A stretch of 64,000 nucleotides of DNA from Chloroflexota bacterium (GCA_030446555.1 JAUJNA010000001.1:238634-302633), one strand, 5' to 3'. Numbered from the stretch's first letter, positions 5,226-28,992 are shown. Numbers and translations: made by a program. Notes: generated by a model not told the origin, from the letters alone.

Positions 5226-5375
5226 TCGCCGGGCGCTATGGGTGACGCTCGCCAGAAGCCGCGCCCAAGATGGCGGGAGGGTGCCCTGCGCTAGAATGGA
5301 CGTGCGCCCAGCGACCGTCCCGGACTGCCGGACGAGCGTGCTGGACGGCATCCCCCTCGTGAGGCACAGCGACAG

Positions 5376-5735
5376 GTGACGACCGGACTCTGGTACGTGC
5401 TCGGCTTCGCGTTCGCCGGCTTCGCGTTCGTGTTCCTCACCATCGGCCTCGCGTGGCTGATCAGTCATCGGCACAAGGGCGATCGCCATAAGGGTCTGCC
5501 CTACGAGTCGGGCATCGACACGTACGGTGATACCTGGGGCCGGTTCGGACTCTCCTTCTACATCTACGCGCTGCTGTTCGTCGCGTTCGACATCGAGGTG
5601 ATCTTCATCTACCTCTGGGCTCTCGCCTTCAACGACGTCCTGCTCGGTGGCTTCCTCAGCATGCTGGCGTTCGTGGGCATCCTCCTGCTGGGACTGGGAT
5701 ATGCGTGGCGCAAGGGCGTGCTGACATGGAAGTGA
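5376..5735 (+). CDS. nuoA: NADH-quinone oxidoreductase subunit A
   Basis: 119 aa, GTG start. Three TM helices with the NuoA/ND3 signature (…YESGIDTYGDTWGRFGLSFYIYALLFVAFDIEVIFIYLWA…). Confidence 0.9.
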   Translation: MTTGLWYVLGFAFAGFAFVFLTIGLAWLISHRHKGDRHKGLPYESGIDTYGDTWGRFGLSFYIYALLFVAFDIEVIFIYLWALAFNDVLLGGFLSMLAFVGILLLGLGYAWRKGVLTWK

Positions 5736-5738
5736 ACG

Positions 5739-6545
5739 ATGGATGAGAACAGGGACCCCGGGCGGGCGACCAACCTGACGCCATGGGGACAGCAGGTCTC
5801 GAACACGGGGGGCGACGAACCGGTGGCCGGGCGGGGCGATCCGCCCGCGATGGGGTCCGATCAACCGAGCCACGTCTCCGACGGGCTCGTCTCGGGGGCG
5901 CGCGACCGGGCGGTGATGGAGCCCATCGTCGTGCCCAACACAGCATGGGTGCCAGCCGATCCCGCCGCGTATGGCGGCGGACAGCCGCCCCATGTGGCGC
6001 ATCTCCGCGAGCTGGAGTTCGCCGACAAGTCCGACAACGGGCGCTGGGGAGCGCTGGATGCGATCCCCACCAAGGCGGACTACGTGCTCGATCTCATCCG
6101 CCTCAACAGCCTTTGGCCACTGCTCTCGGGTCTCGCATGCTGCGCCCTCGAGATGATGTCTGCGGCCACCAGCCGCAACGATATGGATCGCTTCGGGATG
6201 TTCCCATTCCGGGCCAGCCCCCGGCAGGCGGACGTCCTGATCGTGGCCGGGACCCTGACGACGAAGATGGCCGGTCCGCTGATCCGTCTCTGGGAGCAGA
6301 TGCCCGAGCCCAAGTGGTGCGTGGCGATGGGGGATTGCACCACATCGGGGGGTCGCTACAAGCGTTCCTACGCCACCGTGGAGGGCATCGACCGCATCAT
6401 GCCGGTGGACGTCTACGTGCCCGGCTGCCCGCCGCGCCCGGAGGGCCTCATCTACGGGATGATGAAGCTCCAGCAGCTCATCAAGGATCGGCGCGGTCAC
6501 TGGCCGGAGCGGGCGGTCGGCCCGACCGTGCCGACCGGCATCTGA
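5739..6545 (+). CDS. nuoB: NADH-quinone oxidoreductase subunit B (with about 100-aa Pro/Gly-rich N-terminal extension; start uncertain)
   Basis: The C-terminal 170 aa are canonical NuoB (…[17 protein letters not shown]…MGDCTTSGG…[12 protein letters not shown]…), including the N2 cluster cysteines. The ATG at 5739 overlaps the nuoA stop region. Internal alternative starts (M38, M61) are possible. Confidence 0.85.
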
Positions 6546-6549
6546 ATCG

Positions 6550-7209
6550 CTGACCGCCCAGGGGTTTGCCACGGACACCGCACTGAAGCGCCGTCTGGAT
6601 GATCGCCTGCGCGAGCACCTGCTCGGGCCCGCCACCGCGCGCCAGGACACCACCGAGATCCGCATCGCGCCGCAGAGCGTGACGCCGGTCATGACCGCAC
6701 TCCACGACGATGAGGCGTTCCGCTTCCCGATCCTGTCCGACCTGTGCGGAGTGGACACGGGCACGACCCTGGAGGTGGTCTACCACCTCTGGTCGGACGT
6801 CACGCCCGATTGGGTGCGCGCGTGATCGCCGAGGGGCTGTCGCGCGACGATCGCGCGCGTGCCCTCGGTCACCTTCCTGTGGAACGGAGCCGAGTGGGCC
6901 GAGCGCGAGGCCTATGACATGTTCGGCATCATCTTCGAAGGCAACCGGGACCTGCGACGCATCTACATGCCGCCCGATTACCAGAGCTTCCCGCTGCGCA
7001 AGGACTTCCTCCTGCCCGACGACGCGGCACGGTCGCCGGGCATGGGCATCCGCCACATCGAGCAGCCGTTCCCGCCGGGCGAGTCCCAGCGCCAGCCGGT
7101 GCTGCGCAAGGGACATGGTGCGAAAGCGGCGAACGTGGTCCAGGGTTCGTGGGCCGCCGAGCTGCGCTCGGGCGAGGATCCAGCGGTGGACCGCGAGGTG
7201 TCGCGATGA
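6550..7209 (+). CDS. nuoC: NADH-quinone oxidoreductase subunit C (disrupted: in-frame TGA at 6823-6825, no canonical start codon in frame)
   Basis: N-terminal NuoC region (…[72 protein letters not shown]…) and C-terminal region ([50 protein letters not shown]…) are in the same frame but separated by a TGA. The gene-caller piece 6859-7209 is the C-terminal fragment. The likely start, TTG at 6566, is out of frame. Confidence 0.75.
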
Positions 7210-8430
7210 CGGCCGATCCGGCGACCACCCGCTCACTCGACGACCCGGACATCATGGTGAACACGCCGGCGACCATCGTCGACGCCATCCCGCCCTACCC
7301 GCCGCGCACCGAGCGCGAGGCCGAGTTCTACGCCATGCGCGACGGCGAGATGCTCATCAATTTCGGGCCGCAGCATCCGTCCACCCACACGAGTGCTGCG
7401 CATCGTCCTCAAGATCGACGGCGAACGCATCGTGGACCTCGACCCGGTCCTGGGCTACCTGCACCGTGGCGTCGAGAAGATCTGCGAGAACGGGGACTGG
7501 CATCACGCCATCAGCAACTGCGACCCCCTCGAGTACGCCGCCTCCATGTTTTCGGAGGCGATGCCCGTGCTGGCCGCCGAGAAGCTGCTCGACCTGGAGG
7601 TGCCGCGCCGCGCGGAGTACATCCGCGTGCTCGCCTGGGAGCTCAACAGGGTCGCCAGCCACGCCCTCTTCATCGGCTGGCTGGCGCTCGACCTTGGTGG
7701 CCTGACGCCCATCCTCTATGGCTTCATCGAGCGCGACGAGATCGTGGAGATGCTGGCTGCGCTCACCGGGCAGCGGGTCCTCTTCAACTACCTGCGCATC
7801 GGTGGTGTGAACGGCGACCTGAACCACGACTTCATGAGCCGGCTCGGCGACTGGATGGGGCACGCCCTTCACCGCATCGAGGACCAGCAGAGGCTGCTCA
7901 ACGCCAACGAGATCTTCGTCCGGCGGACCAAGGGATTGGGGATCGTGGACCGCGACATCGCACGCCGCACCTGCCTCTCCGGGCCGGTGCTGCGTGCGAC
8001 GGGCGTCCCGTACGACGTGCGCCGAGCGCACCCCTACAGCGTGTACCCCGAGCTCGACTTCGAGATCCCCACCCGGGAGGAAGGCGACTCGTACGCTCGA
8101 TACCTGCTCCACCTCGACGAGATCAAGCAGAGCATCCGCATCATCGACCAGGTGCTCCACCAGATGCCGGACGGTCCGGTGATGGCCAAGATCCCGCGCC
8201 TCCTGCGCATCCCGCCCGGTCGCGCCTACATCTCGGTCGAGAGCCCGCGCGGCCAGTACTCGTGCTACGCGATGAGCGATGGATCGGACCAGCCGTTCCG
8301 TCTGCGCATCCACGACCCCTCGTTCTTCAACCTCCAGGCCGTCGGCCTCGTGATGCCCGGGAACCTCATCGCCGACACGATGGCGGTCATGGCCAGCCTG
8401 GATCCCATCATGGGCGGGGTCGACAAGTGA
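7206..8430 (+). CDS. nuoD: NADH-quinone oxidoreductase subunit D (apparent frameshift near 7388-7393)
   Basis: ATG at 7206 overlaps the nuoC stop (ATGA). The N-terminus …[11 protein letters not shown] is in frame 0 (ORF 7149-8465). The remainder, [32 protein letters not shown]…[28 protein letters not shown]…, is in frame +1 (ORF 7393-8430). The 49-kDa subunit signature is complete once the frames are joined. Confidence 0.85.
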
Positions 8431-8461
8431 GCCGCGCGCTCACCAGCGACGAGGTGCGGCC

Positions 8462-9865
8462 GTGAGCGTCATCACGCGTCCCTGGTCACGGCTCACGCTG
8501 GCGGGCAAGATCGTCATCCCGCTGATCTTCCTGTTCGTGCTCCTGAACGTCCTGCTCATCGCGGGCTTCGCGACGGGGGTGCTGCCGTTCCTCGGCGGGC
8601 TCCTCCTGCGGATCATCAACGACAACGTCGACATCGTGCGCTTCATCGGCGCGGTGACGGCCCTGCTCCTGTTCACCGTGCCGGCCGCGTTCGTGATCAT
8701 CTTCATGGAGCTGAAGCTCATCGCCTTCGTCAACCTGCGGCTGGGCCCCAACCGGCAGGGGCCGTGGGGCGTCCTGAGCTCGACGCTCCACGGCTTGAAG
8801 GTCCTGGCCAAGGAGGACTTCACGCCCACCGGCGCGGACGTGCCTGTCTTCACGCTGGCGCCGGTGGTGACCTATCTCGGCGCGGTGATGACGATCATGG
8901 TCATCCCGTTCGCACCGGGCCTCTTCGGCATCGACCTGAACATCGGCCTGCTCTACTTCTTCGCGGTGGCCGGCCTCACGACGATCGGACTGATCATGGC
9001 CGGCTGGGCGAGCTTCAACAAGTACAGTCTCCTCGGCGGCCTGCGGGCAGCCGCAGCCATCATCTCGGCGGAGATCCCCCTGACGCTGGCAGCGGTGGGC
9101 GTGATCCTGCTGACCGGGACGCTGAGCCTGAACGAGATCGTCCTGCGCCAGGCGGGGAGTGCCCTCGATTGGTTCGTCTTCCAGCAGCCCCTCGGGTTCG
9201 TGGTCTTCTTCATCGCCGCCACCATCGAGGCGGGACGCACACCGTTCGACATGGCCGAGGCGGACAGCGAGATCGTGGCCGGCTTCGCGACCGAGTACAG
9301 CGGCATGCGCTTCGGCTTCTTCTTCTTCGCCGAGTACGTCAACCTCTTCATCATCTCGGCACTCACGGTGACGCTCTTCCTGGGCGGCTGGAACGCGCCG
9401 TTCGACATCGCCATCGTGCTCGACCGGCTGGGCATCGTCGTCGACCCCACACTCGACCCGGGCTCGCTGGGCATGGGCCTGCTGTGGCTGCTGCTGCTCG
9501 TCCCGCCTATCGCCATCCTGCTGCTGGCGCTGCCGTTCTGGCTCCTGCGGTCCGACTGGTCATTGCTGAAGTCGCTGGTCGTGGGCTTCCTGCTCTTCAA
9601 CCTGGTGGTGATGGTGCTCGTGGGCATCTGGGCCTACATGTCGTTCCCGTTCGTGGCCGGCATCTTCTGGTTCCTGGGCAAGACGTTCACGCTCGTTGCG
9701 CTCTTCGTCATCATGCGCGGCACGCTGCCACGGATCCGTATCGACCAGCTGATGGGCGTGGCATGGAAGTGGCTGATCCCCGCCGCGTTGCTCAACATCT
9801 TCATCACGGCGGCGGCCATCGTCATCCTGCGTGATCCGAGCCTCCCCTGGAACGGAGGCGGCTGA
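8462..9865 (+). CDS. nuoH: NADH-quinone oxidoreductase subunit H (extended, 467 aa)
   Basis: NuoH/ND1 motifs (…NLRLGPNRQGPWGVLSSTLHGLKVLAKEDFTPTGAD…EAGRTPFDMAEADSEIVAGFATEYSGMRFGFFF…) with extra N- and C-terminal TM segments. GTG start 31 nt after the nuoD stop. Confidence 0.9.
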   Translation: MSVITRPWSRLTLAGKIVIPLIFLFVLLNVLLIAGFATGVLPFLGGLLLRIINDNVDIVRFIGAVTALLLFTVPAAFVIIFMELKLIAFVNLRLGPNRQGPWGVLSSTLHGLKVLAKEDFTPTGADVPVFTLAPVVTYLGAVMTIMVIPFAPGLFGIDLNIGLLYFFAVAGLTTIGLIMAGWASFNKYSLLGGLRAAAAIISAEIPLTLAAVGVILLTGTLSLNEIVLRQAGSALDWFVFQQPLGFVVFFIAATIEAGRTPFDMAEADSEIVAGFATEYSGMRFGFFFFAEYVNLFIISALTVTLFLGGWNAPFDIAIVLDRLGIVVDPTLDPGSLGMGLLWLLLLVPPIAILLLALPFWLLRSDWSLLKSLVVGFLLFNLVVMVLVGIWAYMSFPFVAGIFWFLGKTFTLVALFVIMRGTLPRIRIDQLMGVAWKWLIPAALLNIFITAAAIVILRDPSLPWNGGG

Positions 9866-9866
9866 G

Positions 9867-10706
9867 ATGTCGTTCATGGATCGGATGCCCGGCTGGGGCC
9901 TGGTGAAGGGGGTCGCCTTCGGCATGGCCCAGATGCTCCGACCCAAGGTCACCGTCCAGTACCCCGAGGTGGTGCAGGAGATCTCCCCGCGGCACCGAGG
10001 CAGGTTGCTGCTCCTCTACGACGAGTTCGGCACGCTCAAATGCGAGACCTGCTTCCAATGCGCCGCCGCCTGTCCCATCGAGTGCATCGACATGGGCGGC
10101 GTGGACACGAAGAGCCGGTTCTACCTGCACTGGGGACCGGCCGAGCAATACGCCGAGCGACGTGAGGACTCCGCGCTCAGGCGCTCCGGACGGCCGGTGC
10201 CCGACCGCAGCTTCTCGGCCTGGCAGGGTATCGATCTGGCCCCACTCCAGGCGATCATCGCCGAGGAGCAGTACAGCCCCCGTCGGATGCTGCGCATCCT
10301 GGAGCGGACCCAGGAGACCTACGGCAACCTGCCGGTCGCGGCGATCCAGCACATCAGCGCCACGACGGGTGCCTGGTACAGCGAGATCTACGGCATCGCC
10401 ACGAGCTATCCCCATCTCCGCTTCGAGCCGGCGGCGAGTCACGAGATCGCGGTCTGCCGTTGCGCCGTCTGCTCGATGGCTGGTGCCGGCCGCATCCTCG
10501 CCGCTCTCGTCGACGCGCTGGGGACGGACCTTGACGGCGTCAGCCCGGACGGCCGCGTGCGGCTCACGAGGGCGGACTGCGGCGGCGAGGGAGGTCCTCT
10601 CGTCCTCGTCGACGGGCATCCTCAGTCGAGCATGACGCCTTTGCGGGCCACCGAGATCGCCGCCCACCTGCGGACGGGTCACCTACCCGCTGGTCCGCCG
10701 GCCTGA
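9867..10706 (+). CDS. NuoI-like (single [4Fe-4S] motif) fused to NuoE-like thioredoxin-fold [2Fe-2S] domain
   Basis: ATG at 9867 preceded by GGAGG. The N-terminal 100 aa are NuoI-like (…KVTVQYPEVVQEISPRHRGRLLLLYDEFGTLKCETCFQCAAACPIECI…) but carry only one CxxCxxCxxxCP motif. The C-terminal 150 aa are NuoE/24-kDa-like (…RMLRILERTQETYGNLPVAAIQHISATTGAWYSEIYGIATSYPHLRF…EIAVCRCAVCSMAGAGRILAALVDALG…VRLTRADCGGEGGPLVLVDG…). No cysteine codons occur in any frame across the junction (10100-10260). Confidence 0.8.
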   Translation: MSFMDRMPGWGLVKGVAFGMAQMLRPKVTVQYPEVVQEISPRHRGRLLLLYDEFGTLKCETCFQCAAACPIECIDMGGVDTKSRFYLHWGPAEQYAERREDSALRRSGRPVPDRSFSAWQGIDLAPLQAIIAEEQYSPRRMLRILERTQETYGNLPVAAIQHISATTGAWYSEIYGIATSYPHLRFEPAASHEIAVCRCAVCSMAGAGRILAALVDALGTDLDGVSPDGRVRLTRADCGGEGGPLVLVDGHPQSSMTPLRATEIAAHLRTGHLPAGPPA

Positions 10707-10708
10707 AC

Positions 10709-12029
10709 ATGCGCATCCTTCCCCTCGGCCGACGGGTGGCCGACGATGCTGCTGTCGCGCTCCGCGGATGGTGCGCCGGAGCCCACGCTCGCCTCAACCG
10801 CGGCACAGGGCGGCTGGGCCGCATGGCGCCGCGCTGCATCACCCGGATGAGTCCGGAAGAGGTCACCCGCCTCGTCCACGAGTCGGGCCTGCGCGGCCGG
10901 GGCGGCGCCGGCTACCCCACGGGTCAGAAGTGGCGAGCGTGCGCCGCTCGACCCGATGCCGTGCGCTACGCCGTCGCCAACGGGTTCGAGGCCGACCCCG
11001 GAGCGCAGCTGGACCGGACGCTCATGGAGCGGGACCCGCACGCCGTCTTGGAGGGCCTGGCCCTGGCGGCCTATGCCGTGCGTGCCCACCAGGCGTACCT
11101 GGCGGTCAAGGCATCGAGCACGCTCGCCGTGCGCCGGCTGCGCGACGCCCTTCGAGAGGCCGAGGCAGGGCGCTACCTGGGCACGGACATCCTGGGCTCC
11201 GGGTATGACCTGCACGTGGAGATCCGCGAGCTTGCCGGCTCGTTCGTCCTTGGCGAGGAGACCGTGCTGCTCAGAGCGCTCGAGAACAAGCGGGCCCAGC
11301 CCGACCAGCGGCCGCCGTGGCCGGCCGAGCGCGGTCTCTTCGACAAGCCCACCGTGGTCAACAACGTCGAGACCCTCGCCGCGGTGCCCGGCATCGTGGG
11401 CGACGGCGGGACGGCCTTCGGAGGGAGCGGCCTCCCGTCGGCACCCGGCACCACCCTCGTCCAGGTCAGTGGCGCGGTGCATCGACCCGGTATCGCCGAG
11501 GTCCCCATGGGCACCCCTGGCCCAGGTGCTGAGCCTGGCAGGCCTGTCGGAGGCGCCCAAGGCGGTGCTCGTCGGTGGTCCCTCGGGCGGCTTCCTGCCG
11601 CCAGGCGAGCTGGACGCGCCCATCGAGCCGGCGTCGCTCGCCGAGCGCGGTGCGGTCTGGGGCTCGGGGACGGTGGTCGTCGCGGATGCGCGGACGTGCA
11701 TCGTCGACATGGCCAGCCTCATGACGCGCTACCTGAACGACGAGGCATGCGGCAAGACGATCCCGTGCCGCATCGGCCTACGCCGCCTCGCCGAGATCGC
11801 GGAGCGCTTCACCGACGGTCGCCCCCGGCCCACCGACGCGCAGCTCGTGGACGACCTCGCCTCCGACACCCGGGACGGTGCGCTGTGTGCCCTGGAATCG
11901 ACCGCCACGAACCCGCTCCTGAGCGGGATGCGATACTTCATGCCCGAGTTCGAGGACCACATCATCCGGGGCCATTGCCCGGCCGGTGTCTGCCAGCCCC
12001 TCCGCGTGGCGGCCGGAGCCACTCGATGA
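10709..12029 (+). CDS. nuoF: NADH-quinone oxidoreductase subunit F (51-kDa, FMN/NADH-binding; apparent frameshift near 11515)
   Basis: ATG 2 nt after the nuoI/E stop. N-part in frame 2 (…SGLRGRGGAGYPTGQKW…FEADPGAQLDRTLMERDPHAVLEGLALAAYAV…LGEETVLLRALENKRAQPDQRPP…TVVNNVETLAAVPGIVGDGGTAF…VSGAVHRPGIAEVPMGTP). C-part in frame 0 (ORF 10956-12029: …LAQVLSLAGLSEAPKAVLVGGPSGGFLP…DEACGKTIPCRIGLRRLAEIAERF…CALESTATNPLLSGMRYF…). Confidence 0.85.
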
Positions 12030-12075
12030 CGCCCATGCCGGGGAGCGACTCGCACTCCAGGAGCCGCCGCGTCCG

Positions 12076-14687
12076 ATGACCGACACCCTGCCCCAGATCC
12101 GCGACGCGGCTCCCGACACGGTGGTGGAGCGCCTGCTCGAGACGCAGGCACCGCAGCGTCCGATGTCGGCACCCACGTTCACCGTCGAGATCGACGGACG
12201 GCAGCTGACCGGGCGCGTGGGCCAGACCATCCTGGAGATCTGCCGTGACAACGGGATCGAGGTCCCGACCCTCTGCTACGAGCCGAAGCTGCCGGGCTTC
12301 GGAGCGTGCCGCATGTGCGTGGTGGAGGTGGATGGAGAAGGCCAGCCGCCCATCAGCTGCTCGCGGGCCGCGGAGGCCGGCATGGTGGTCCGCACGCAGA
12401 CGCCGCGCCTTCGCCAGGTCCGCAAGACGAACCTGGAGCTCATCTTCAGCGACCACAACGCCTACTGCCTGCCGCCCTGCCAGAACAAGTGCCCCAGCCA
12501 TATCGACATCCCGGGCTTCCTCAAGGCGAACACCGAGGGTGACCCGCGCGAATCGACGCGCATCTTCAAGCGCACCATCCCTTTCCCAGCGTGCTGGGCC
12601 GGGTCTGCCCGGCTCCGTGCGAGGAGCATTGCCGCCGCGACGAGGTCGACGAGGCGATCGCCATCCGCGACAGCCACCGCTGGGCGGGTGACCAGGTCCT
12701 GAAGGCCCAGGCACGGGGAGAGCGAGCGCCCGTGCCGTTCGACGTGCAGCCGCCGTCGGGCAAGCGGGTGGCGGTCATCGGCTCGGGACCGGCCGGCATG
12801 TCGGCGGCGTACTACCTGGCCATCGCCGGCCACGGCGTCACGGTCTTCGAGCGCGACCCGGCGCCCGGCGGCATGCTGCGCTACGGCATCCCGCAGTACC
12901 GCCTGCCCAAGGTCGAGGTGCTCGAGGCCGAGTACCAGGGAGTGTGGGATCTCGGCGTCAAGGTCGTCACCGACGCGGCCCTGGGACGCGACTTCACGCT
13001 GGACGACCTGCAGAACCAGGGCTTCGACGCGGTGTGCGTGGCCATCGGCTGCTACGACACGAACAAGCTGGGAGTGCCGGGCGAGGAGGCCGTGGGCGTC
13101 CTGGACGGCCTCGAGTATCTCCGTGTCGCGACCCTCGGCCTGCCCTTCCCGGGCCACGCCGGGACACGGGTGGTCGTCATCGGTGGCGGCTTCACCTCGA
13201 TGGACTGCACCCGCACCTCGGTCCGCCAGGGTGCCGCCGAGGTGACGCTGGTCTACCGCCGCGACATGAAGGACATGCCGGCCGCCAACGAGGTCCACGA
13301 GGCGCTCGAGGAGGGCGCCCGGGCCATCTTCCAGGCGGCTCCCACGCGCGTCATCACCGATGACCAGGACCGCGTGACGGGCGTCGAGTTCCAGCGCATG
13401 CGCCTGGGCGAGCCCGACGCGTCGGGTCGGCGACGCCCCGAGCCCGTGGCCGGCACCGAGTTCGTCATCGAGTGCGACCGCGTCCTGCTCGCCATCGGCC
13501 AGGGCCCCGACCTGACCTGGCTGGACCGCGGCGCGAGCGGCGTCAGCGCCACGAAGAACAGGCGCCTGGCGGCCGATGCGGTCACCTTCACGACCGGTCG
13601 CCCAGGGGTCTTCGGCACGGGCGACGTGCGCATCGGTGCCGCCACCGTGGTCCAGGCCAATGCCGAGGGCCGCCGCGCCGCCTACGCCATCGATGCCTAT
13701 CTCCAGGGTCAGGACCTCGACGCCATCAGGACCCGTCAGACCTTGGCTGAGCCGCAGCCCGAGTTCCTCTCGATCGTGCCCTACACGGGCGAGGTGAAGG
13801 AGCCGCGCTACCGCCTCAAGGCGATGGGCGCCGAGGACCGCAACCGCAGCTACGTCGAGTACGAGATCCCCTACACGCAGCAGGAGGCGATGGCCGAGTC
13901 GGCGCGCTGCCTCCAGTGCACCTGCGAAGCGATCGGGTACTGCGACCTGCGGCGCCAGGGCATCGAGTACGGGACCACGCTGAAGACCCTCGAGCCGCAG
14001 GCGCGTGGCGCCTTCAGCTACCGCAGCGTGTCCGAGAACCGCTTCACCGGCACGAACCACGACTACATCCGCGACGACAGCCACGCCTTCATCCTGCGCG
14101 AGCCGTCGCGCTGCATCGACTGTGGTCGCTGCGCCAACGTGTGCAAGGAGATCGTGGGCGCGGCCTGCTACGACTTCATGCGCACCGGGTTCGACACACT
14201 GGTCACGACGCCGCTCGACATGAGCCTCAACACCACGCCCTGTGTCTCCTGCGGCCGCTGCGCGGAGACGTGTCCCACCGGAGCGCTCATGCCCAAGCCG
14301 CGCGTGCTCGAGAAGTACGACGTGGACGAGACGCGCTGCATCCTGTGCGGCATCTGCGTCGACGCCTGTCCCTACGACGCCCTGCGCTGCGGCCCCGACT
14401 TCGAGCTCAGCCACGAGAGCCGAGCCGAGCCGATGATCGACCTGATGGCCATCAGCGCCATCGACCGGGACACCGAGATCACCTACGTGCGCCGGGAGCG
14501 TGACTGGCTGGAGCGCGCCCAGGCGTCGGGACGCGGACTGCCCGCCGGCCGGTTCCTGCCGGTGCTCCCGGCCACGTCGCAGGCCGGCAACGGCCACACG
14601 CACTCCAACGGACACGGCGCGGCTCACGGCGGCACGGGTGGCCACGGTCCCGGTGGGACCGGCGGTCCCGTCACGCACGGCCCCTAG
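12076..14687 (+). CDS. [2Fe-2S] ferredoxin / GltD-like FAD-NAD(P)H oxidoreductase / 2x[4Fe-4S] ferredoxin fusion, occupying the NuoG position (apparent frameshift near 12586)
   Basis: The N-terminus is a NuoG/HoxU-like 2Fe-2S domain ([52 protein letters not shown]). Next comes the GltD N-terminal cluster motif ([19 protein letters not shown] … [12 protein letters not shown], split between frames 1 and 0 at a C homopolymer). Then the glutamate-synthase-small-subunit core ([48 protein letters not shown]…) and C-terminal CxxCxxCxxxC(P) motifs ([35 protein letters not shown]). The molybdopterin-fold of NuoG is absent. Confidence 0.8.
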
Positions 14688-14701
14688 TCGGCCTCGGCCG
14701 C

Positions 14702-15379
14702 GTGGCTCTTCCTCAGACGATCCCGTTCCTGGGCTGGTCCTGGGACGACTTGATCTTCCTCGTCCTGGCAGGTCTGATGCTGGGCGGAGCGGTGATGGTC
14801 GTCATCGGGCGCAACATCATCCGCTCGGGTCTCTTCATGATCCTCTCGTTCGCGGCCCTGGCCGGCTTCTACGTGCTCCTGGGGGCACCCATCGTGGCCG
14901 CGGCACAGGTCCTCATCTACATCGGCGCCATCAGCGTGCTCATCCTCTTCGCCATCATGCTCACGCAGTCGAAGGCAGGTCCCTCGCGTCTCGTCTTCCA
15001 TCACCAGGCCTGGGCCGGTGCGATCGCCGCCATCGGGCTTGCGTCGCTCCTCGTGCTCGTGGTCCTCTCCACCGACTGGCCGGCGCAGGTGGGACAGGGC
15101 ACGGCGGCCGGCACGACCGCCGTCGCGCAGCTGCTCTTCTCGGAGTACGTGCTCGCGTTCGAGGTCGTGAGCGTCCTGCTTCTCGCCGCGGTGATCGGCG
15201 GCGTCTTCCTGGCCAAGCGCGAGGAGTCGCTCGACCCCGGCGAGCGGGCAGGCGACGAGCCCACGCTGGGACGCAACCAGTCACCACCCGTGCAGGCCGA
15301 CGGCCGTCCGTCCGCTTCGACTCCTCGGCAGGTCAGCGGGTCGGCGCGCTCCACGACCGCGATCTCGGAGCGGCCATGA
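14702..15379 (+). CDS. nuoJ: NADH-quinone oxidoreductase subunit J (with low-complexity C-terminal extension)
   Basis: GTG at 14702. NuoJ/ND6-like core (…[20 protein letters not shown]…). The C-terminal 60 aa are Pro/Ser/Arg-rich. The stop overlaps the nuoK start (ATGA). Confidence 0.8.
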
Positions 15380-15687
15380 CCCAGTCGCTGGACGCCTACC
15401 TGATCCTGGCCAGTCTCCTCTTCACGATCGGCACGTTCGGCTTCCTCGCCAGACGGAACGCCATCGCCATGCTCATGTCCATCGAGCTCATGCTCAATGC
15501 CGTGAACCTGGCCATCGTGGCGTTCGGCGCGTACGTTCCCACGCTGGCCGAGGATGGCGCGCTGATCGCGCTCTTCGTCATGGCCGTGGCGGCGGCCGAG
15601 GCCACCGTGGGGCTGGCCATCATCATCGCCATCTACCGTAACCGGAGGACGCCGCTCGTCGACGAGTACGCGTCGATGCGCGAATGA
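15376..15687 (+). CDS. nuoK: NADH-quinone oxidoreductase subunit K
   Basis: 103 aa, [46 protein letters not shown]…, the NuoK/ND4L signature. Confidence 0.9.
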
Positions 15688-15756
15688 GGGCACGAACGTC
15701 GCGCGACCGGAGGACGACCCGCGTCGATCGACCTGCCGTGATGCGGGGATAAGAGG

Positions 15757-17763
15757 GTGCCCTTCTTCACCGAGGCGCCCGAGACGGTCGCGACCGCGGG
15801 TAGCTCGCTCGATCAGGCGCTCGTGCTGGCGCTCCTGGCGCTGCCGCTGGCCGGCTTCGGGCTGACGGCGCTCGTCGGGAGGCGGATGGGCGACAAGGCC
15901 TGGGCCATCGCCGTACCGGCCATCGTCCTCGTCTGGCTGGCCGCGCTGTACCTCATCTTCCAGACGCTGGTCGCGGGAGCGTACGGCGAGGCGGGCTTGC
16001 ACTTCCGCCTGTACGAGTGGATCCCGGCGGGCGACTTCACGGTCGAGGTGGACTTCGGCGTGGATGCCCTCACCGCGGTGATGCTCATCGTCGTCACGAC
16101 CGTGGGCATGCTCGTCCACGTCTACTCCATCGGCTACATGGCGCACGATCCCGGCCGATGGCGCTTCTTCGCCTATCTCAACTTCTTCATGTTCAGCATG
16201 CTCCTGCTGGTCCTGGCCGACAACTTCCTGCTGCTCTTCGTGGCATGGGAGCTCGTGGGGCTGTCGAGCTACCTGCTCATCGGATTCTGGTATCGCCGGC
16301 GCAGCGCGGCTCTGGCGGCCAAGAAGGCCTTCATCGTCAACCGTGCGGGCGACTTCGGCTTCGGGCTCGGGATCATGGCCATCTGGACGACCGTGGGCAC
16401 TCTGGACTACTCGGACGTGTTCCAGCTGCTGCCCGCTCAGGTGGAGAGCGGGGCCATCGAGGGTTGGCAGATGACCGGCATCTGCCTGCTCCTCTTCGCG
16501 GGCGCCATCGGCAAGAGCGCGCAGTTCCCGCTCCACGTCTGGCTGCCCGACGCGATGGAAGGGCCGACCCCGGTGAGCGCCCTCATCCACGCCGCCACGA
16601 TGGTCAACGCGGGGGTCTACCTCGTGGCACGCGCCAACCCACTCTTCGCGCAGTCGCCTGAGGCGCTGCTCGTCGTGGCGCTCGTCGGCACGTTCACCTG
16701 CGTCATGGCCGCCGCCATCGCGTTCACGCAGAAGGACATCAAGCGCGTGCTGGCGTACTCGACGCTGAGCCAGCTGGGATACATGTTCATGGCTCTGGGC
16801 GTGGGCGCCTTCGTGCCGGCCATCTTCCACCTCGTGACGCACGGCTTCTTCAAGGGTCTGCTCTTCCTTGGCTCGGGCTCCGTGATCCATGCGGTCCACG
16901 AGGAGCAGGACATGGATCGCATGGGTGGCCTCTGGCGCCGCATCGGCATCACCCACGTCACCATGCTCATCGGCTCGCTGGCCATCGCGGGCATCCCGCC
17001 GCTGGCGGGTTTCTTCAGCAAGGACGAGATCCTGGGAGAGTCATTCAAGCTCGGCTTCGGCTGGGTCTGGGCGATCGGCATCATCGTCGCGGTCATGACC
17101 GCGCTCTACATGTTCCGGCTGATGGGCAAGACCTTCTACGGGCCCAGCAACGTCGACCCGCACACCGAGCCCCGGATCCACGAGTCGCCCATCTCCATGA
17201 CCGGCCCACTCATGCTCCTGGCGGTGCCGTCCGTGCTGATCGGCTTTGCGCTGGGCTGGCCGCCCGAGAGCGGCCTCATCCACCAGTGGCTCGCGCCGGT
17301 GTTCCATCCGCTGGAGGAGGCGCTCCACCATGGCGCCGCCGACTATCAGCTGCTGGGCATCGATGGGTTCCTGCTGGGCGCGAGCGTCGCGGTCTCGGCG
17401 GTGGGCATGGTCGTCGCCTGGCGCCTCTTCGGCTTCCTCAGCACCATGGCGCCCCGCCCGGCGCTGGTCGCGAGCCTGACCGCCCGGCTCAACGGGCCGT
17501 ACCGCATCTCGCGCGACAAGTGGTACTTCGACGACCTGAACCACCTGCTCTTCGTGCGCGTCGGGGGAGCGGTCGCGCGCGCCCTCTGGTGGTTCGACGT
17601 CCACGTCATCGATGGCGCCGTGAACGGCGTCGCGTCGCTCACCCAGGGCACCGGTCACGGGCTGCGCCAGATCCAGACCGGCCGCGTCCAGAACTACGCC
17701 CTGGGCATCGCCGGCGGCCTGCTCGTCATCGCGGTGGGGTATCTCTTCATCGTGGCGCGCTGA
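15757..17763 (+). CDS. nuoL: NADH-quinone oxidoreductase subunit L
   Basis: 668-aa antiporter-like subunit (…WELVGLSSYLLIGFWYRRRSAALAAKKAFIVNRAGDFGF…) with the long C-terminal amphipathic helix region. GTG at 15757 preceded by AAGAGGG. Confidence 0.9.
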   Translation: MPFFTEAPETVATAGSSLDQALVLALLALPLAGFGLTALVGRRMGDKAWAIAVPAIVLVWLAALYLIFQTLVAGAYGEAGLHFRLYEWIPAGDFTVEVDFGVDALTAVMLIVVTTVGMLVHVYSIGYMAHDPGRWRFFAYLNFFMFSMLLLVLADNFLLLFVAWELVGLSSYLLIGFWYRRRSAALAAKKAFIVNRAGDFGFGLGIMAIWTTVGTLDYSDVFQLLPAQVESGAIEGWQMTGICLLLFAGAIGKSAQFPLHVWLPDAMEGPTPVSALIHAATMVNAGVYLVARANPLFAQSPEALLVVALVGTFTCVMAAAIAFTQKDIKRVLAYSTLSQLGYMFMALGVGAFVPAIFHLVTHGFFKGLLFLGSGSVIHAVHEEQDMDRMGGLWRRIGITHVTMLIGSLAIAGIPPLAGFFSKDEILGESFKLGFGWVWAIGIIVAVMTALYMFRLMGKTFYGPSNVDPHTEPRIHESPISMTGPLMLLAVPSVLIGFALGWPPESGLIHQWLAPVFHPLEEALHHGAADYQLLGIDGFLLGASVAVSAVGMVVAWRLFGFLSTMAPRPALVASLTARLNGPYRISRDKWYFDDLNHLLFVRVGGAVARALWWFDVHVIDGAVNGVASLTQGTGHGLRQIQTGRVQNYALGIAGGLLVIAVGYLFIVAR

Positions 17764-19289
17764 TGGACCTCGGCGGACTGCCCATCCTCAGCGCGGTCAT
17801 CTTCACGCCGCTCATCGGCGCGCTGCTCATCGCGCTCGTGCCGCGCGAGCGCGAGGATCTGACGCGCTGGCTGGCGCTCGGCACGGCGCTCGTCACCTTC
17901 GGGCTGTCGCTGCTCCTGCTGCCGGGATTCGACCCGACGGCGCCCGGCTTCCAGTACGTGGAGACGGCCGACTGGATCCCCGCCTTCGGCATCCAGTACA
18001 AGGTCGGCGTCGATGGCATGGCCCTGGTCCTGGTGCTGCTGACCACGACGCTGACGTGGATCAGCATCCTGGCCAGCTTCGGGCCCATCAGGTCGCGGCT
18101 GAAGGAGTACATGATCTCCTTCCTCATCCTCGAGGTGGGGATGATCGGCGTCTTCCTTGCCCTGGACCTCTTCCTCTTCTACATCTTCTGGGAGATGGTG
18201 CTGGTGCCGATGTACCTGATCATCGGCATCTGGGGCGGCGCGAACCGCATCTACGCCACGCTCAAGTTCGTGCTCTACACGCTGGTCGGCTCGCTGCTCA
18301 TGCTGGTGGCCATCCTGGCCGCGGCGTTCAGCTTCCAGTCGGCCACCGGCTCGTGGGCGGGCGCGTTCGACTTCGAGCAGCTGCGCGGATTCGGGTTCGA
18401 CCCGACGCTCCAGTTCTTCGCCTTCGGCGCCTTCTTCCTGGCATTCGCCATCAAGGTGCCCATGTTCCCCTTCCATACCTGGCTGCCTGACGCGCACGTG
18501 GAGGCACCGACCGCCGGGTCGGTCATCCTGGCCGGCGTCCTGCTCAAGCTGGGCGGCTATGGGATCATCCGGTTCTGCCTGCCGCTCTTCCCCGACGCGG
18601 CGCAGCAGTGGGCGCCGCTCCTCATCGTCCTGTCGCTCATCGCCATCATCTACGGCGCCATCGTGGCCATGGTCCAGCCCGACCTCAAGAAGCTGGTCGC
18701 GTACAGCTCGGTCAGCCACATGGGCTTCGTGACCCTGGGTATCTTCATCTTCCAGCCACAGGGGATGCAGGGCGCGATCCTCCAGATGGTCAACCATGGG
18801 ATCATCACCGGTGCCCTCTTCCTGTGCGTGGGCGTGCTCTACGAGCGGACGCACGATCGGTCGATCGCCCGGATGGGCGGCCTCGCGGCGTCCACCCCGG
18901 TCTACGCCGCCATCTTCGGCTTCTTCATGCTCGCCTCGCTCGGGCTCCCCGGGATGGCCGGCTTCGTGGGCGAGTTCCTGGTCCTGCTCGGCACCTTCGA
19001 CCACTCGCCGATCGCCGCGGCGGTCGCGTCGGTCGTCGTCATCCTCGCCGCCGGATACCTCATGTGGATGTACCAGCGAGTCGTCTTCGGCGAGCTGTCG
19101 GACTTCCTCAAGGGCGTGGGTCACCACCTGACCGACATGGACCGCCGGGAGCTGGTGACGCTGACGCCGCTGGTGGGCTTGACGCTCGTCTTGGGGGTCG
19201 CCCCCGCCCTCGTCCTGGACCTGATCCAGATGCCGGTCGGTGAGGTGCTCGCTCGCGTCGGGGGCTCCCTCGTGGGAGCGGCCCCATGA
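17763..19289 (+). CDS. nuoM: NADH-quinone oxidoreductase subunit M
   Basis: ATG at 17763 overlaps the nuoL stop. NuoM/ND4 motifs (…FPFHTWLPDAHVEAPTAGSVILAGVLLKLGGYG…). Confidence 0.9.
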   Translation: MDLGGLPILSAVIFTPLIGALLIALVPREREDLTRWLALGTALVTFGLSLLLLPGFDPTAPGFQYVETADWIPAFGIQYKVGVDGMALVLVLLTTTLTWISILASFGPIRSRLKEYMISFLILEVGMIGVFLALDLFLFYIFWEMVLVPMYLIIGIWGGANRIYATLKFVLYTLVGSLLMLVAILAAAFSFQSATGSWAGAFDFEQLRGFGFDPTLQFFAFGAFFLAFAIKVPMFPFHTWLPDAHVEAPTAGSVILAGVLLKLGGYGIIRFCLPLFPDAAQQWAPLLIVLSLIAIIYGAIVAMVQPDLKKLVAYSSVSHMGFVTLGIFIFQPQGMQGAILQMVNHGIITGALFLCVGVLYERTHDRSIARMGGLAASTPVYAAIFGFFMLASLGLPGMAGFVGEFLVLLGTFDHSPIAAAVASVVVILAAGYLMWMYQRVVFGELSDFLKGVGHHLTDMDRRELVTLTPLVGLTLVLGVAPALVLDLIQMPVGEVLARVGGSLVGAAP

Positions 19290-20821
19290 GCCAGAACGAC
19301 CTGATCGCGCTCCTGCCGCTCGTCGTGGTCGTGGGACTTGCCATGGCCGTCGTCATCATCGACATGATCGTCCCCGACCGCGATGACCTCGTGGGCGTCG
19401 TGGCGAGCGGCGGCCTCCTCCTGACGCTCGCCGTGATCGCGGTGGCGGGTCCACTGCCGGGAGGCATCGGACTGCTGCCCGTCGAGGGAGAGCAGCTCTT
19501 CGAGAGCGCCACTGGCGGTGGCGTGCTGGTACGCGACCAGCTGACGGCCTTCCTGGACCTGCTCTTCGTGATGATCGGCCTGCTCAGCCTGCTCTTCGCG
19601 GCCGACTACCTGAAGCCGCGCAACCTGCCCATGGCCGAGTTCGCGGCGACGCTGCTCTTCGCCATCAGCGGCGCGATGCTCCTGGCCGGCGGGCGCGACC
19701 TGCTCATCCTGTTCCTGGGCCTGGAGCTGCTGGTCCTGCCGGGCTACATGCTGGCCGGCTACGCGAAGCGCGATGGCCTCTCGACCGAGGGAGCCGTCAA
19801 GTACTTCCTCCTGGGCAGCTTCTCGAGCGCCATCTTCCTGTTCGGCCTGGCGCTCGTCCTCGGCTTCACGGGCTCCACCCGTGTGGAGGAGATCGCCATC
19901 GTCCTGGCCGGGGTAGCGGCAGGCGACGCGCCGCTCTCCTTGGGATTGGCTATGGGCCTGGCGCTGCTGACCACGGGGGTGGCCTTCAAGATCGCCGCCG
20001 TGCCCTTCCACTACTGGACGCCTGACGCCTATCAGGGCTCGCCCACGCCCGTCACAGGGTATCTCTCGGTCGGGCCGAAGATCGCCGCGTTCGCGCTCAT
20101 CCTGCGCCTCTTCGTCGACGCGCTCGGTCCCTTGAAGGCCGACTGGCTGCCGTTCGTCATCGTGCTGGCGGCTATCACGATGACCCTCGGCAACCTCGTC
20201 GCGATCACGCAGGACAACATCAAGCGGATGCTGGCGTACAGCTCCATCGCTCACACCGGGTACATCCTGGTGGGGTTGGCCGCGTACGCGGCGGCGCCCG
20301 TCCGCTCATATGCCGAGCAGGCCGGTCTCGAGGGTGTGCTGTTCTACAGCGCCGTGTACGCCTTCATGAACCTGGGCGCCTTCGCCTGCGTGGCGGCGCT
20401 CCAGCGCCGGCCGGGGGTCACCAGCCAGATCGCCAGCTTCGCCGGCCTGGGCCGGCGGGCGCCGCTACTGGGCGCGGCCATGTTCCTCTTCCTCCTGTCG
20501 CTCACCGGCATCCCGCCGCTGGCCGGCTTCTGGGCCAAGTGGTACGTGATCCAAGCGGCGCTGCAGGCCGGTGGCCTCGTCGCATGGCTTGCCGTGCTGA
20601 TGATGCTCAACGCCACGGCCGCGGCGTTCTACTACCTGCGCGTGGTCGTCTACATGTACATGCGCGAGGCGCCCGATGCCGCCCGGCCGGTCTCGCTGGG
20701 CGCCTTCACCCGGGTCGGCTTGGTCGTCTCGGCGGCGTTCACGATCCTCATCGGGGTGGCGCCTCCGGTGACCACCGCGGTCATCGACATGGCGAGGCAG
20801 GCGGCACAGGCGCTGCTTTGA
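19286..20821 (+). CDS. nuoN: NADH-quinone oxidoreductase subunit N
   Basis: ATG at 19286 overlaps the nuoM stop (ATGA). NuoN/ND2 motifs (…VPFHYWTPDAYQGSPTPVTGYLSVGPKIAAF…). It is the last gene of the operon. Confidence 0.9.
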   Translation: MSQNDLIALLPLVVVVGLAMAVVIIDMIVPDRDDLVGVVASGGLLLTLAVIAVAGPLPGGIGLLPVEGEQLFESATGGGVLVRDQLTAFLDLLFVMIGLLSLLFAADYLKPRNLPMAEFAATLLFAISGAMLLAGGRDLLILFLGLELLVLPGYMLAGYAKRDGLSTEGAVKYFLLGSFSSAIFLFGLALVLGFTGSTRVEEIAIVLAGVAAGDAPLSLGLAMGLALLTTGVAFKIAAVPFHYWTPDAYQGSPTPVTGYLSVGPKIAAFALILRLFVDALGPLKADWLPFVIVLAAITMTLGNLVAITQDNIKRMLAYSSIAHTGYILVGLAAYAAAPVRSYAEQAGLEGVLFYSAVYAFMNLGAFACVAALQRRPGVTSQIASFAGLGRRAPLLGAAMFLFLLSLTGIPPLAGFWAKWYVIQAALQAGGLVAWLAVLMMLNATAAAFYYLRVVVYMYMREAPDAARPVSLGAFTRVGLVVSAAFTILIGVAPPVTTAVIDMARQAAQALL

Positions 20822-20865
20822 CCGTCGAGCGAGCGGAGGTGCCCGTCCAGCCGGCCGAGGACGGG

Positions 20866-22503
20866 ATGCGACCGTCGGTCACCGCGCAGGAGCGGTCCGA
20901 GGCCTCCGCTCGGGCCCGGGCGATCAGGGAGCCCCTCTCGCGGCTGCTGGTTGGCGATCAGCGGCTCGTCGTCGTCTCCAACCGAGGGCCTCTGTCGTTC
21001 CGCCGCACGCGGGCCGATGCATGGCGTGCCGCACGCGGATCGGGAGGGCTGGTCACCGCGTTGGGCGAGCTGGGCAGGCTCGCACCCGTGACATGGGTCA
21101 GCGCCGCGATGGACGCCGGGGACCGAGCTGCCGGCGAGGCACTGGCGACCACCGGCGACGCCAGTGATCGGCTGCGTCAGGTGATCGCGGACGAGATGCC
21201 TGGCCAGGACCTCGAGCTGCGCCTGGTGGACGTGGAAGACGAGGCGTGGCGGAACCACTACTCGGTGGTCGCCAATCCGTTCCTCTGGTTCCTCCAGCAC
21301 CAGCTGTACCAGCTGCCCTACGAGCCACGGGTCGACGACAGCCTGATCGGCGCCTGGCGCGATGGATACGCCGTGGTCAACGAGCGGCTGGGCCGGGCGG
21401 CCGCGGCGGCGGGCGGCTCGGAGCACCGGCCGGTCATCCTGCTCCAGGACTACCACCTCTACCTCTGCGCTCCGGCGGTCAGAACCCTCCGTCCCGATGC
21501 CATCCTGATGCACTTCAATCACATCCCGTGGCCTTCGGTGGAGGCGTGGCAGGTCCTGCCGCAGGGGATGCGCCGGGCCATCTGCGAGGGGCTCCTGTCC
21601 AACGACATCCTGGGCTTCCAGACCGACCGGCACGCGACGAACTTCCTCCTGGCGGCCGAGGCGTTCGTGCGCGATGCCCACGTGGACCCGTCCGGGCGGA
21701 ATGTGCGCTGGCGGGGCCGGACCATCTGGGTGCGCTCCTATCCCATCTCGCTCGACCCGGGGGCGCTGACCTCGTTCGCCGGCGGACCGGCGGTGCGGAG
21801 CTGGCGGAAGCGGCTGCGCGAGCGCCTGGAGCGAGCCGGCCGCCCACAGGTCATCGTTCGTGTGGACCGCCTGGAGCCGTCCAAGAACGCCTTGCGCGGC
21901 TTCCTCGCCTTCGAGGCACTCCTTGAGCGCGAGCCGGAGCTCCGCCGCGCCGTCCGCTTCATCGCCATCCAGTCGACCAGCCGCGAGAACATCCCCGAGT
22001 ACGCGCGCTATGCCGCTGAGGTGCGCGAGGTCGTCGCGCGGGTGAACGGCATGGGTGACCCGGACGAACAGCCCATCTGGCTCCTGGACGGCACCGACTA
22101 CGCCCTCGCCATCGCGGCTCTCCAGCTGGCGGACGTCGTGCTCGTCAATCCCATCGTGGATGGCATGAACCTGGTGGCGAAGGAGGCCGTCCTGGTCGGC
22201 GAGCCCGTGCTCGTCCTCTCGGAGACGGCCGGCGCGGCGGAGCAGCTGGCCGCAGACAGCCTCACCGTCACCGCAGCTGATGTCGCGGGGACGAGCCGGA
22301 CGCTGCTCGACGCGTTGCGGATGCCGCGGGAGGAGCGCCTCTACCACCTCCGCCGGCTGCGCCAGAGTGTGCGCAACGAGGACCTCTCCTGGTGGCTGGG
22401 ACGTCAGGTCCGGGACCTCGCAGCCGTCGCGAGTGGCGGCCGGCCGCCCAGCCGGCAGCTGCGCGACACGACGCGGCGCTTCGAACCGATCCTTTTCGGT
22501 TAG
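20866..22503 (+). CDS. otsA: alpha,alpha-trehalose-phosphate synthase (GT20)
   Basis: OtsA signature (…LVVVSNRGPLSF…GGLVTALG…ILLQDYHLYLCAPAVR…DRLEPSKN…VNPIVDGMNLVAKE…). Start taken at ATG 20866; the ORF extends upstream to 20539. Confidence 0.85.
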   Translation: MRPSVTAQERSEASARARAIREPLSRLLVGDQRLVVVSNRGPLSFRRTRADAWRAARGSGGLVTALGELGRLAPVTWVSAAMDAGDRAAGEALATTGDASDRLRQVIADEMPGQDLELRLVDVEDEAWRNHYSVVANPFLWFLQHQLYQLPYEPRVDDSLIGAWRDGYAVVNERLGRAAAAAGGSEHRPVILLQDYHLYLCAPAVRTLRPDAILMHFNHIPWPSVEAWQVLPQGMRRAICEGLLSNDILGFQTDRHATNFLLAAEAFVRDAHVDPSGRNVRWRGRTIWVRSYPISLDPGALTSFAGGPAVRSWRKRLRERLERAGRPQVIVRVDRLEPSKNALRGFLAFEALLEREPELRRAVRFIAIQSTSRENIPEYARYAAEVREVVARVNGMGDPDEQPIWLLDGTDYALAIAALQLADVVLVNPIVDGMNLVAKEAVLVGEPVLVLSETAGAAEQLAADSLTVTAADVAGTSRTLLDALRMPREERLYHLRRLRQSVRNEDLSWWLGRQVRDLAAVASGGRPPSRQLRDTTRRFEPILFG

Positions 22504-28988: not shown

Positions 28989-28992
28989 TCAG

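Follow-up and report, generated by a model that had tools for sequence, protein, structure and literature searches.

The complex I-like (nuo) operon at positions 5376-20821 (+) of a 64,000-nt stretch of DNA from a Chloroflexota bacterium (GCA_030446555.1 JAUJNA010000001.1:238634-302633; the whole stretch is called the window here) carries a three-gene electron-input module inside nuoI. Judged by its alignments, nuoI is split over two fusion proteins and not truncated: its first half is joined to a NuoE-like protein (together I'E) and its second half to the end of G', a flavoprotein that takes the place of NuoG. The three proteins of the module resemble NfnABC and StnABC more closely than NuoEFG. 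We consider it probable, with a good deal of room for doubt, that the locus encodes a non-bifurcating, proton-pumping NAD(P)H:quinone oxidoreductase that takes up electrons at two flavin sites and whose Nfn/Stn-derived head is tethered through a two-chain NuoI.

The two halves of NuoI and their conservation

The N-terminal half of NuoI lies at 9894..10139 (+) and forms residues 10-91 of the 279-residue I'::E fusion (9867..10706, +), which continues through a conserved linker into a NuoE-like thioredoxin-fold domain (PF01257, residues 140-280). It contains the first CxxCxxCxxxCP motif at 10041-10076, and the N-terminus of the fusion gives a weak 4Fe-4S match in Pfam. The C-terminal half stands at the end of G' (14304..14450, +), with the second CxxCxxCxxxCP motif at 14337-14372 followed by a segment that contains GPxFE. 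The N-half aligns to residues 15-81 of P. denitrificans NuoI, residues 25-88 of E. coli NuoI and positions 2-66 of TIGR01971. The C-half aligns as a single stretch to 8qby_I 93-143, 9f5x_G 161-209 (domain E 6e-11) and E. coli NuoI 92-131, and it covers TIGR01971 positions 71-113, the NuoI-specific GPxFE being included in the NuoI/TYKY match. When the halves are rejoined in silico, they give a contiguous alignment to residues 15-143 of the 163 in P. denitrificans NuoI (E 1e-23) and cover positions 2-116 of the 121 in TIGR01971. The break point is the loop between the two cluster motifs.

The initial annotation had regarded nuoI as truncated and had placed E/F/G' as a module between nuoI and nuoJ. 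Both descriptions had to be given up, as the other half of nuoI was found at the 3' end of G' and the cassette lies inside the gene. The simplest history would be that an E-F-G' cassette landed inside nuoI with in-frame fusion at both ends. After the NuoI C-half, G' ends in a His/Gly-rich low-complexity tail (~14540-14684 in the window), whose length varies among relatives. In one related locus (L042, Chloroflexi bacterium CSP1-4, LDXM01000001.1), a 1-nt deletion at 14419 (GAGAAGTAC to GAGAGTAC) coincides exactly with the point in G' where the Stn-like part gives way to the NuoI C-half (residues 748/749), and the downstream frame shows no evident start codon; the position may be due to chance, and the deletion may be an error of assembly or a genuine break.

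The I'E protein of the window is 100% identical to a database protein (P0001). At E <= 1e-5 it has 2591 homologues in the database, of which the 120 best measure 271-283 residues; those with names belong to Chloroflexota and 'Candidatus Limnocylindria/Limnocylindrales'. With one genome scanned per species, the fusion is encoded in at least 586 GTDB species. The best 80 of these are metagenome-assembled genomes (MAGs) of Chloroflexota, mostly labelled Limnocylindria, apart from three oddly labelled short contigs. G' of relatives is likewise one protein, mostly 845-890 residues long in the close family (871 and 860 residues in the intact copies of loci L001 and L003) and 82-91% identical among the 120 best homologues.

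Gene order was compared over +/-10 kb around the matches. The order A-B-C-D-H-IE-F-G'-J-K-L-M-N was recovered with the proteins of L001 (tblastn) in 83/83 loci as far as their contigs reach. Two long related contigs have the same order with every gene intact (C 168-192, D ~406, F 440 and G' 860-871 residues), and they share the upstream neighbours purH, glpX and folK. Further full-length fusions, with no more than 28-39% identity, came from an exhaustive search without profiles; a profile search with these distant fusions was swamped by Limnocylindria-type families, and two distant contexts were examined. The D-H-I'E-F-G' stretch is present in these two loci of divergent families also, which brings the related loci that agree to 85. 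An assembly artefact is ruled out by this agreement, and the survey that had been proposed, of the fusion and of a GltD-like gene in the G position, thus found both conserved. No related locus has a one-piece nuoI in its operon gene table or gene order, a separate E/F/G' unit or an adjacent canonical nuoG, and a second copy of E, F or G' was not found in the 64-kb window by tblastn with the relatives' proteins. In locus L086 (GCA_038250515.1), which represents a divergent sub-family, an extra gene (14793-16175) stands between G' and nuoJ; its product of 460 residues has an SDR/NmrA-like domain of the NAD(P)H-binding kind. G' of this locus comes to an end soon after the NuoI C-half and has no His/Gly-rich tail.

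These comparisons bear on the possibility that module and core are merely co-transcribed. E/F/G' would then be a soluble enzyme, the pieces of NuoI would be relics, and the core would use another donor or stand idle. In a single-chain AlphaFold2 model of I'E, the N-half is disordered (predicted local distance difference test, pLDDT, < 50) and the E domain is confident (> 90 over most of it), which agrees with a relic; the halves were modelled only apart. Such disorder is also expected of a half-domain that needs its partner, with which it fits without proving anything. A relic would decay, yet C59/62/65/69 of I'E are invariant in 120 homologues and C757/760/763/767 of G' in 118, the flanking NuoI residues are invariant too, and all eight motif cysteines are kept even in the families of 28-39% identity. 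Moreover, there is no other nuoI within the operon of any locus, and from the established structure of complex I, a core without the NuoI clusters has no electron path to N2. We therefore give co-transcription with relic halves hardly any credence.

The E, F and G' proteins and their nearest relatives

On the evidence of sequence matches and gene order, E, F and G' derive from the Nfn/Stn (Bfu) lineage and not from NuoEFG, because the best matches of all three lie in that lineage and the E-F-G' order is the stnABC order. Their best solved relatives are the three chains of C. saccharolyticus 9bov/9bp5, T. sibiricus 9n5u and S. ovata 8oh5, and all three proteins score below the NuoE/F/G equivalog cut-offs.

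The NuoE/NfnC/StnA-like domain of the fusion (10230..10700, +) has its best PDB matches in 9bov_C, 9n5u_C and 8oh5_A. The E part reaches E 1e-18 to Nfn/Stn chains, compared to 4.5e-14 or weaker to the NuoE/24-kDa chains of complex I. A Foldseek search with its AlphaFold2 model also placed chain C of Nfn-ABC on top, with HydC, FdsG and NuoE chains close behind. Four cysteines of the domain are invariant: C197, C199 and C202 (10455-10472) and C238 (10578-10580). Their spacing is CxCxxC...C with the canonical fourth cysteine replaced, whereas BfuC has the canonical Cx4C...Cx3C. The ligands vary by sub-family, with three cysteines in L086 and the canonical set in P0329, P0352 and P0339.

The nuoF-like gene (10709..12029, +), whose PF01512 and PF10589 matches are in separate frames, encodes an FMN (flavin mononucleotide)/NADH subunit of the NfnB/StnB/HydB core type. 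Its match to 9bov_B (E 5e-112) is better than those to NuoF-type chains (6e-86 to ~1e-63). The intact orthologue of 440 residues aligns only to about residues 124-526 of the StnB/HydB/NfnB chains, which are 584-630 residues long, and Pfam recognizes only Complex1_51K, SLBB and NADH_4Fe-4S. The extra cluster and ferredoxin-like domains at the N and C termini of StnB/NfnB/HydB are absent from F.

The G' gene (12076..14687, +), identified from Pfam matches on two fragments and from PDB alignments, encodes a StnC/NfnA-like subunit fused to the NuoI C-half. It had been described as a GltD-like FAD (flavin adenine dinucleotide)/NAD(P)H flavoprotein in an operon without a canonical 75-kDa NuoG. The absence of NuoG stands, as Pfam and TIGR01973 find no molybdopterin-type NuoG domain in the operon. 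The GltD domain is also present, but the description was incomplete, since G' carries in addition NuoG-type [2Fe-2S] and ferredoxin-like [4Fe-4S] domains and is colinear with StnC/NfnA. Its matches to the StnC and NfnA chains have E values of 9e-159 (9bov_A), 1e-146 and 1e-139. Colinearity extends over 9bov_A (5-699), 8oh5_C (5-700) and 9n5u_A; for StnC it is put at residues 5-681. The two diverge where the FdhF-like domain of StnC begins (residue ~683), and the NuoI C-half stands there instead. TIGR01973 (NuoG) matches only residues 39-136 of G', at 85 bits compared to a cut-off of 470.

Within G', the [2Fe-2S] domain of NuoG N1b/Stn C4 type comes first (12175..12402, +; PF13510 Fer2_4, E 5e-20), and its ligands C69/80/83/97 (P0132 numbering) are invariant. 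It is followed by the GltD/NfnL-like domain (12466..13700, +; PF14691 and PF07992), which has two [4Fe-4S] motifs. A predicted FAD site, GSGPAG, lies at 12780-12797, and a predicted NADPH site comprises GGGFTSMDC at 13182-13208 and a second motif (YRRxxxxMPA) at 13254-13283. These FAD and NADPH motifs are conserved in homologues and in comparison with StnC and NfnA, whose FAD/NADPH sites, as well as the domain limits of StnC, have been defined structurally (PMC10482914). The iron-sulphur (Fe-S) region (13908..14276, +; PF22117 Fer4_Nqo3 and Fer4) contains a CxxCxCx5C motif at 13908-13943 and a ferredoxin-like motif pair at 14112-14144 and 14241-14276, with all cysteines invariant. About 21 residues separate the ferredoxin-like domain from the NuoI motif.

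Bifurcating enzymes are recognized by the additional cluster sites of BfuB (B2-B5) and its C-terminal ferredoxin-like domain (PMC9304861, PMC12018979), and non-bifurcating homologues are reported to lack the B2-B5 sites (PMC9304861). Bifurcation by the E/F/G' module is unlikely, because F has no B2-B5 domains and the ligands of the E domain vary across sub-families. The same features can be used to judge an electron-confurcating complex of the 'Nuo-Bfu' type, in which quinone reduction and extra proton pumping would be driven by the joint oxidation of reduced ferredoxin and NAD(P)H. Such a complex would suit proteins of the Bfu (HydABC/NfnABC) lineage, to which E, F and G' belong by sequence, and membrane-bound Nuo-Bfu enzymes were predicted by Schut et al. 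(2022) in Geobacter, Deferribacteres, Planctomycetes and Nitrospirae (PMC9304861). However, F is missing the very domains by which bifurcating BfuB is defined and through which the ferredoxin path runs, and the [2Fe-2S] ligands of the E domain, a proposed part of the flavobicluster, are non-canonical and reduced to three cysteines in the L086 sub-family. Confurcation is accordingly very improbable here.

NfnABC and StnABC have the same three genes in the same order (E-like, F-like, GltD with NuoG-like) and provide the best matches for all three proteins; G' shares with them the GltD-type FAD/NADPH insertion after the [2Fe-2S] domain and the Fe-S motifs downstream. The module differs from them in several ways. 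F lacks the N- and C-terminal cluster and ferredoxin-like domains, G' has half of NuoI in place of the FdhF/molybdopterin-like C-terminal domain, with the E-like protein bearing the other half, and the genes form part of a nuo operon, which makes quinone, and not ferredoxin or NAD+ as in the soluble enzymes, the presumed acceptor.

Compared to canonical 14-subunit complex I (T. thermophilus, E. coli and P. denitrificans), the A, B, C, D, H, J, K, L, M and N subunits are orthologous, and the ligands of N2, all sequence elements of NuoI, an FMN/NADH subunit and a NuoE-fold domain are present. In contrast, the module interrupts nuoI and does not stand between nuoD and nuoH, NuoI consists of two polypeptides, the 75-kDa NuoG with its molybdopterin-like domain is missing, and there is an extra FAD/NADPH site. 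The Nuo-Bfu enzymes resemble the locus in that an ABC module of the Bfu lineage replaces NuoEFG in the middle of the nuo cluster. Their BfuB has extra clusters, with ferredoxin and NADH as proposed donors, whereas F here is of the non-bifurcating type; a GltD/NADPH domain, a split NuoI and a Chloroflexota clade are not described for them in the available part of the paper (PMC9304861). The enzyme is complex I-like by its core and lacks defining features that were tested for both canonical Nuo-14 and the Bfu family.

Complex I-like enzymes of 11 subunits with other input modules include cyanobacterial NDH-1, archaeal Fpo with FpoF and the Campylobacter type. The locus shares with these enzymes an ABCDHIJKLMN core equipped with a lineage-specific electron-input module, and it departs from the NDH-1/Fpo type by having E-, F- and G-like genes inside the operon, with a complete NfnABC-like flavoprotein set. 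Earlier reports state that 11-subunit cores occur in Chloroflexi (PMC3144371) and that a GltD-related flavoprotein stands in place of NuoI in mbx-like operons (PMC4758237); here, NuoI is retained but split, not replaced. No published description of an Nfn/Stn-type NADPH module combined with a non-bifurcating F and a split NuoI was found in a search whose coverage of subscription journals was incomplete and in which the Nuo-Bfu concept came nearest, and the electron-input arrangement is apparently undescribed.

Proposed electron path and its significance

It had been suggested for this operon that an 11-subunit-type core carries a different input module, perhaps one that accepts NAD(P)H or is transhydrogenase-like, and the Nfn/Stn best matches and the FAD/NADPH motifs support this suggestion. 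In the mechanism that we propose, a three-gene cassette of the NfnABC/StnABC type, lodged inside nuoI, would replace the head derived from nuoEFG. The NuoI halves, with one CxxCxxCxxxCP motif each, would rejoin in trans to form the two-cluster ferredoxin fold (N6a/N6b) on NuoB/C/D/H, and the module would in this way be anchored to the quinone module at both its ends. NADH would deliver its hydride to the FMN of F and NADPH to the FAD in the GltD domain of G', and both flavins would feed the Fe-S chain of G'. In Stn, electrons run linearly along FAD-C7-C6-C5-C4-C3-B1-FMN, and C2 and C1 make up a side branch that has been called a non-functional remnant (PMC10482914). This dead-end branch may be live here, leading from the ferredoxin-like domain of G' to N6a/N6b, on to N2 in NuoB and finally to (mena)quinone, while the A/H/J/K/L/M/N membrane arm would pump protons. 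Because F has no ferredoxin-reducing branch, no electron bifurcation is expected.

The same architecture could also do another job, mainly as a membrane-linked transhydrogenase (NADPH to NAD+) or in reverse electron transport (quinol and proton-motive force to NADPH); only one of the nucleotide sites would then be catalytic, and the other regulatory or structural. The nearest solved relatives wire FAD(NADPH) and FMN(NAD) through the same Fe-S chain, both nucleotide-binding modules are highly conserved (as in G' at the identities given above), and the chemistry of complex I is reversible in principle. Nothing in the sequence sets a direction of flow, though, and an uncoupled leak from NADPH to NAD+ would be wasteful. 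Conservation of the quinone module, together with that of the complete pumping arm, argues that quinone chemistry is under selection. These other roles are unlikely on balance, and oxidation of NAD(P)H with quinone as the acceptor is the function that we favour.

Several points weigh against this preferred reading of the locus. Against TIGR01971, the rejoined NuoI reaches 95.8 bits where the cut-off is 113, and the single-chain AlphaFold2 model of G' (P0121 and 52 homologues) has a mean pLDDT of 47, which is unusable for a fold search. The use of NADPH is suggested by one line of evidence, motif conservation with StnC and NfnA. With a conserved linker of ~35 residues joining the NuoI N-half to the E domain, the head would have to be folded differently from that of canonical complex I, since NuoE sits far from NuoI in known complex I. 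A canonical nuoEFG or nuoI elsewhere in the genomes would lie beyond the distance compared around each match, and the window's own copy carries a cluster of indels (see below).

A broader scenario is attractive, and we offer it tentatively, as something a little short of an even bet. An 11-subunit ancestor of complex I would have gained an NAD(P)H head a second, independent time, through insertion of a whole NfnABC/Stn-type operon into the loop of nuoI. A natural split ferredoxin would then staple the module to the quinone module, the dead-end branch of Stn would become a live wire, and the resulting enzyme would pump protons as it passes electrons from NADPH (and NADH) to quinone; it could perhaps also run backwards, with proton-motive force driving the generation of NADPH.

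Complex I is a central respiratory enzyme, and the origin of its NADH-oxidizing module is a long-standing evolutionary question. If the scenario is true, the locus represents a second, independent solution, with another donor lineage (Nfn/Stn), insertion into nuoI itself, one more point of entry (NADPH/FAD) and a core Fe-S subunit made of two polypeptides. An abundant class of soil and freshwater bacteria would then possess a proton-pumping NADPH (and NADH):quinone oxidoreductase, and direct, proton-pumping entry of NADPH into the respiratory chain, if it occurs, would call for a revision of the redox-balance models of Limnocylindria-type Chloroflexota. The 'non-functional' Fe-S branch of Stn transhydrogenases would be linked to the electron path from NuoG to NuoI. 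The split NuoI may also be a natural example of split-protein tethering with possible use in engineering.

Core genes, state of the window's copy and neighbouring genes

A Pfam scan of open reading frames (ORFs) gives the order nuoA-B-C-D-H-[I'::E]-F-G'-J-K-L-M-N on the plus strand of the window, whose G+C content is ~70%. The initial annotation had read the same order with tight packing, and the gene junctions confirm it: ATGA overlaps are found at C/D, J/K and M/N, a TGATG overlap at L/M, and intergenic gaps of 1-3 nt at A/B, H/I'E and I'E/F. A scan of 4900-21400 gave 0 promoter-like and 3 terminator-like sites, no more than expected by chance, and is uninformative on transcription units.

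Upstream of the module, nuoA (5376..5735, +; PF00507 Oxidored_q4, E 7e-30) is intact and 86% identical to its L001 orthologue. It is followed by nuoB (5739..6545, +; PF01058, E 2e-26), which has a long N-terminal extension and an uncertain start. All four ligands of cluster N2 are present in the NuoB translation (CC, the C of 'AMGDC' and the C of 'PGCPP'), and NuoB of L001 clears the NCBIfam NuoB subfamily cut-off. The nuoC gene (6571..7209, +; PF00329 on the 3' part) is disrupted, with a tblastn match that continues through a stop, and nuoD (7206..8430, +; PF00346, E 2e-83) is frameshifted, with two tblastn segments in frames 3 and 1. In L001, NuoD clears the NF004739 cut-off and NuoC scores 111 compared to the NuoC_fam cut-off of 122. 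The nuoH gene (8462..9865, +; PF00146, E 4e-99) is intact. Downstream of G', the membrane arm continues on the same strand with nuoJ (14702..15379; PF00499, E 7e-34), nuoK (15376..15687; PF00420, E 2e-24), nuoL (15757..17763; PF00662 and PF00361), nuoM (17763..19289; PF00361, E 7e-81; 85% identity to L001 NuoM) and nuoN (19286..20821; PF00361, E 3e-70).

Comparison with relatives revealed seven small indels (+2, +1, +1, +1, +2, -2 and -1) and one in-frame TGA within 6816-12582 (5.8 kb), distributed over four peripheral-arm genes, nuoC, nuoD, nuoF and G'; the initial annotation had not mentioned that these genes are not intact. By DNA alignment, nuoC carries +2 near 6816 and +1 near 6853, and nuoD +1 near 7390. 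In nuoF, the changes are +1 near 10720-10727, +2 near 10837 and -2 after 11514, and in G' there is -1 at 12581/12582, in a run of C. Two pairs of indels are mutually compensating, and several 2-nt indels lie outside homopolymers. Recoding of TGA in nuoC was considered and rejected, as the stop (6823-6825) lies in the short out-of-frame stretch between the +2 and +1 indels.

We think it likely that the indels and the stop are long-read consensus errors. Identity to relatives is 73-88% and as high in disrupted as in intact genes, and conserved peptides can be read in the shifted frames, which means that the indels are either very recent or artefactual. Multi-frame genes also occur in the same operon, membrane subunits included, in many long-contig 'MFD' MAGs, and most other MAGs are intact. 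The competing explanation is that the window's operon is a genuinely decaying pseudogene cluster affecting the four genes. In its favour, the indels are clustered, seven in 6816-12582 compared to one candidate in the other ~48 kb (about tenfold in density), unlike uniform random error; 2-nt changes outside homopolymers also fit it, and no database G' is intact and identical to that of the window, the best being 90-91% identical. The screen outside the operon was, however, less sensitive, since compensated pairs of indels would escape it; most other genes tested there gave full-length Pfam matches. The undiminished identity and the similar multi-frame genes in 'MFD' MAGs speak against decay, and nuoB, I'E and the membrane-arm genes, like nuoA, are untouched. 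Decay is the less probable of the two, but it deserves to be kept in mind. The one candidate frameshift outside the operon is in a CDP-alcohol phosphatidyltransferase gene (28254-28988), where a frameshift near 28486 is likely: Pfam matches the downstream ORF from its very beginning, but only from profile position 41 on, and the coding signal moves to another frame there.

The start of nuoC is also unusual. It has no ATG, GTG or TTG, and ACG at 6571-6573 aligns with the ATG of L018; in L077, a GTG stands one codon upstream of the start position. ACG or ATC occupies this position in 14/16 loci that match a strict pattern, 6-7 nt downstream of a purine-rich stretch (among the loci concerned are L001, L006, L010, L013, L032, L039, L042, L059, L072, L075, L078, L082 and L083), and a conserved near-cognate start codon may be used.

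Genes for trehalose-6-phosphate synthase (GT20) and trehalose-phosphatase follow directly after nuoN (20816-23450). The GT20 gene (otsA) is also found downstream of nuoN in L001 and L002, and L003 has a Trehalose_PPase-family gene there instead. A neighbourhood of oriC type extends over 46549-57358, with a DciA-domain gene, recF, dnaN and dnaA on the minus strand (46549-51537), next ~1.4 kb without coding signal (51337-52714), and then yidC, jag and a VanW-domain gene on the plus strand; the nuo operon is therefore ~30 kb from the likely oriC. The cluster at 27927-34376 encodes an ArsR regulator, a CDP-alcohol phosphatidyltransferase, a myo-inositol-1-phosphate synthase, two lipid-A-type acyltransferases, a PHP phosphoesterase and a GT4 glycosyltransferase, and presumably resembles the actinobacterial phosphatidylinositol-mannoside cluster (pgsA1/patA/pimA). 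An ORF of 1798 residues (34398-39794, -) has protein-O-mannosyltransferase (PMT) domains in its C-terminal half only, and it adjoins an ORF for a TMEM260-like O-mannosyltransferase (39575-42586, +).

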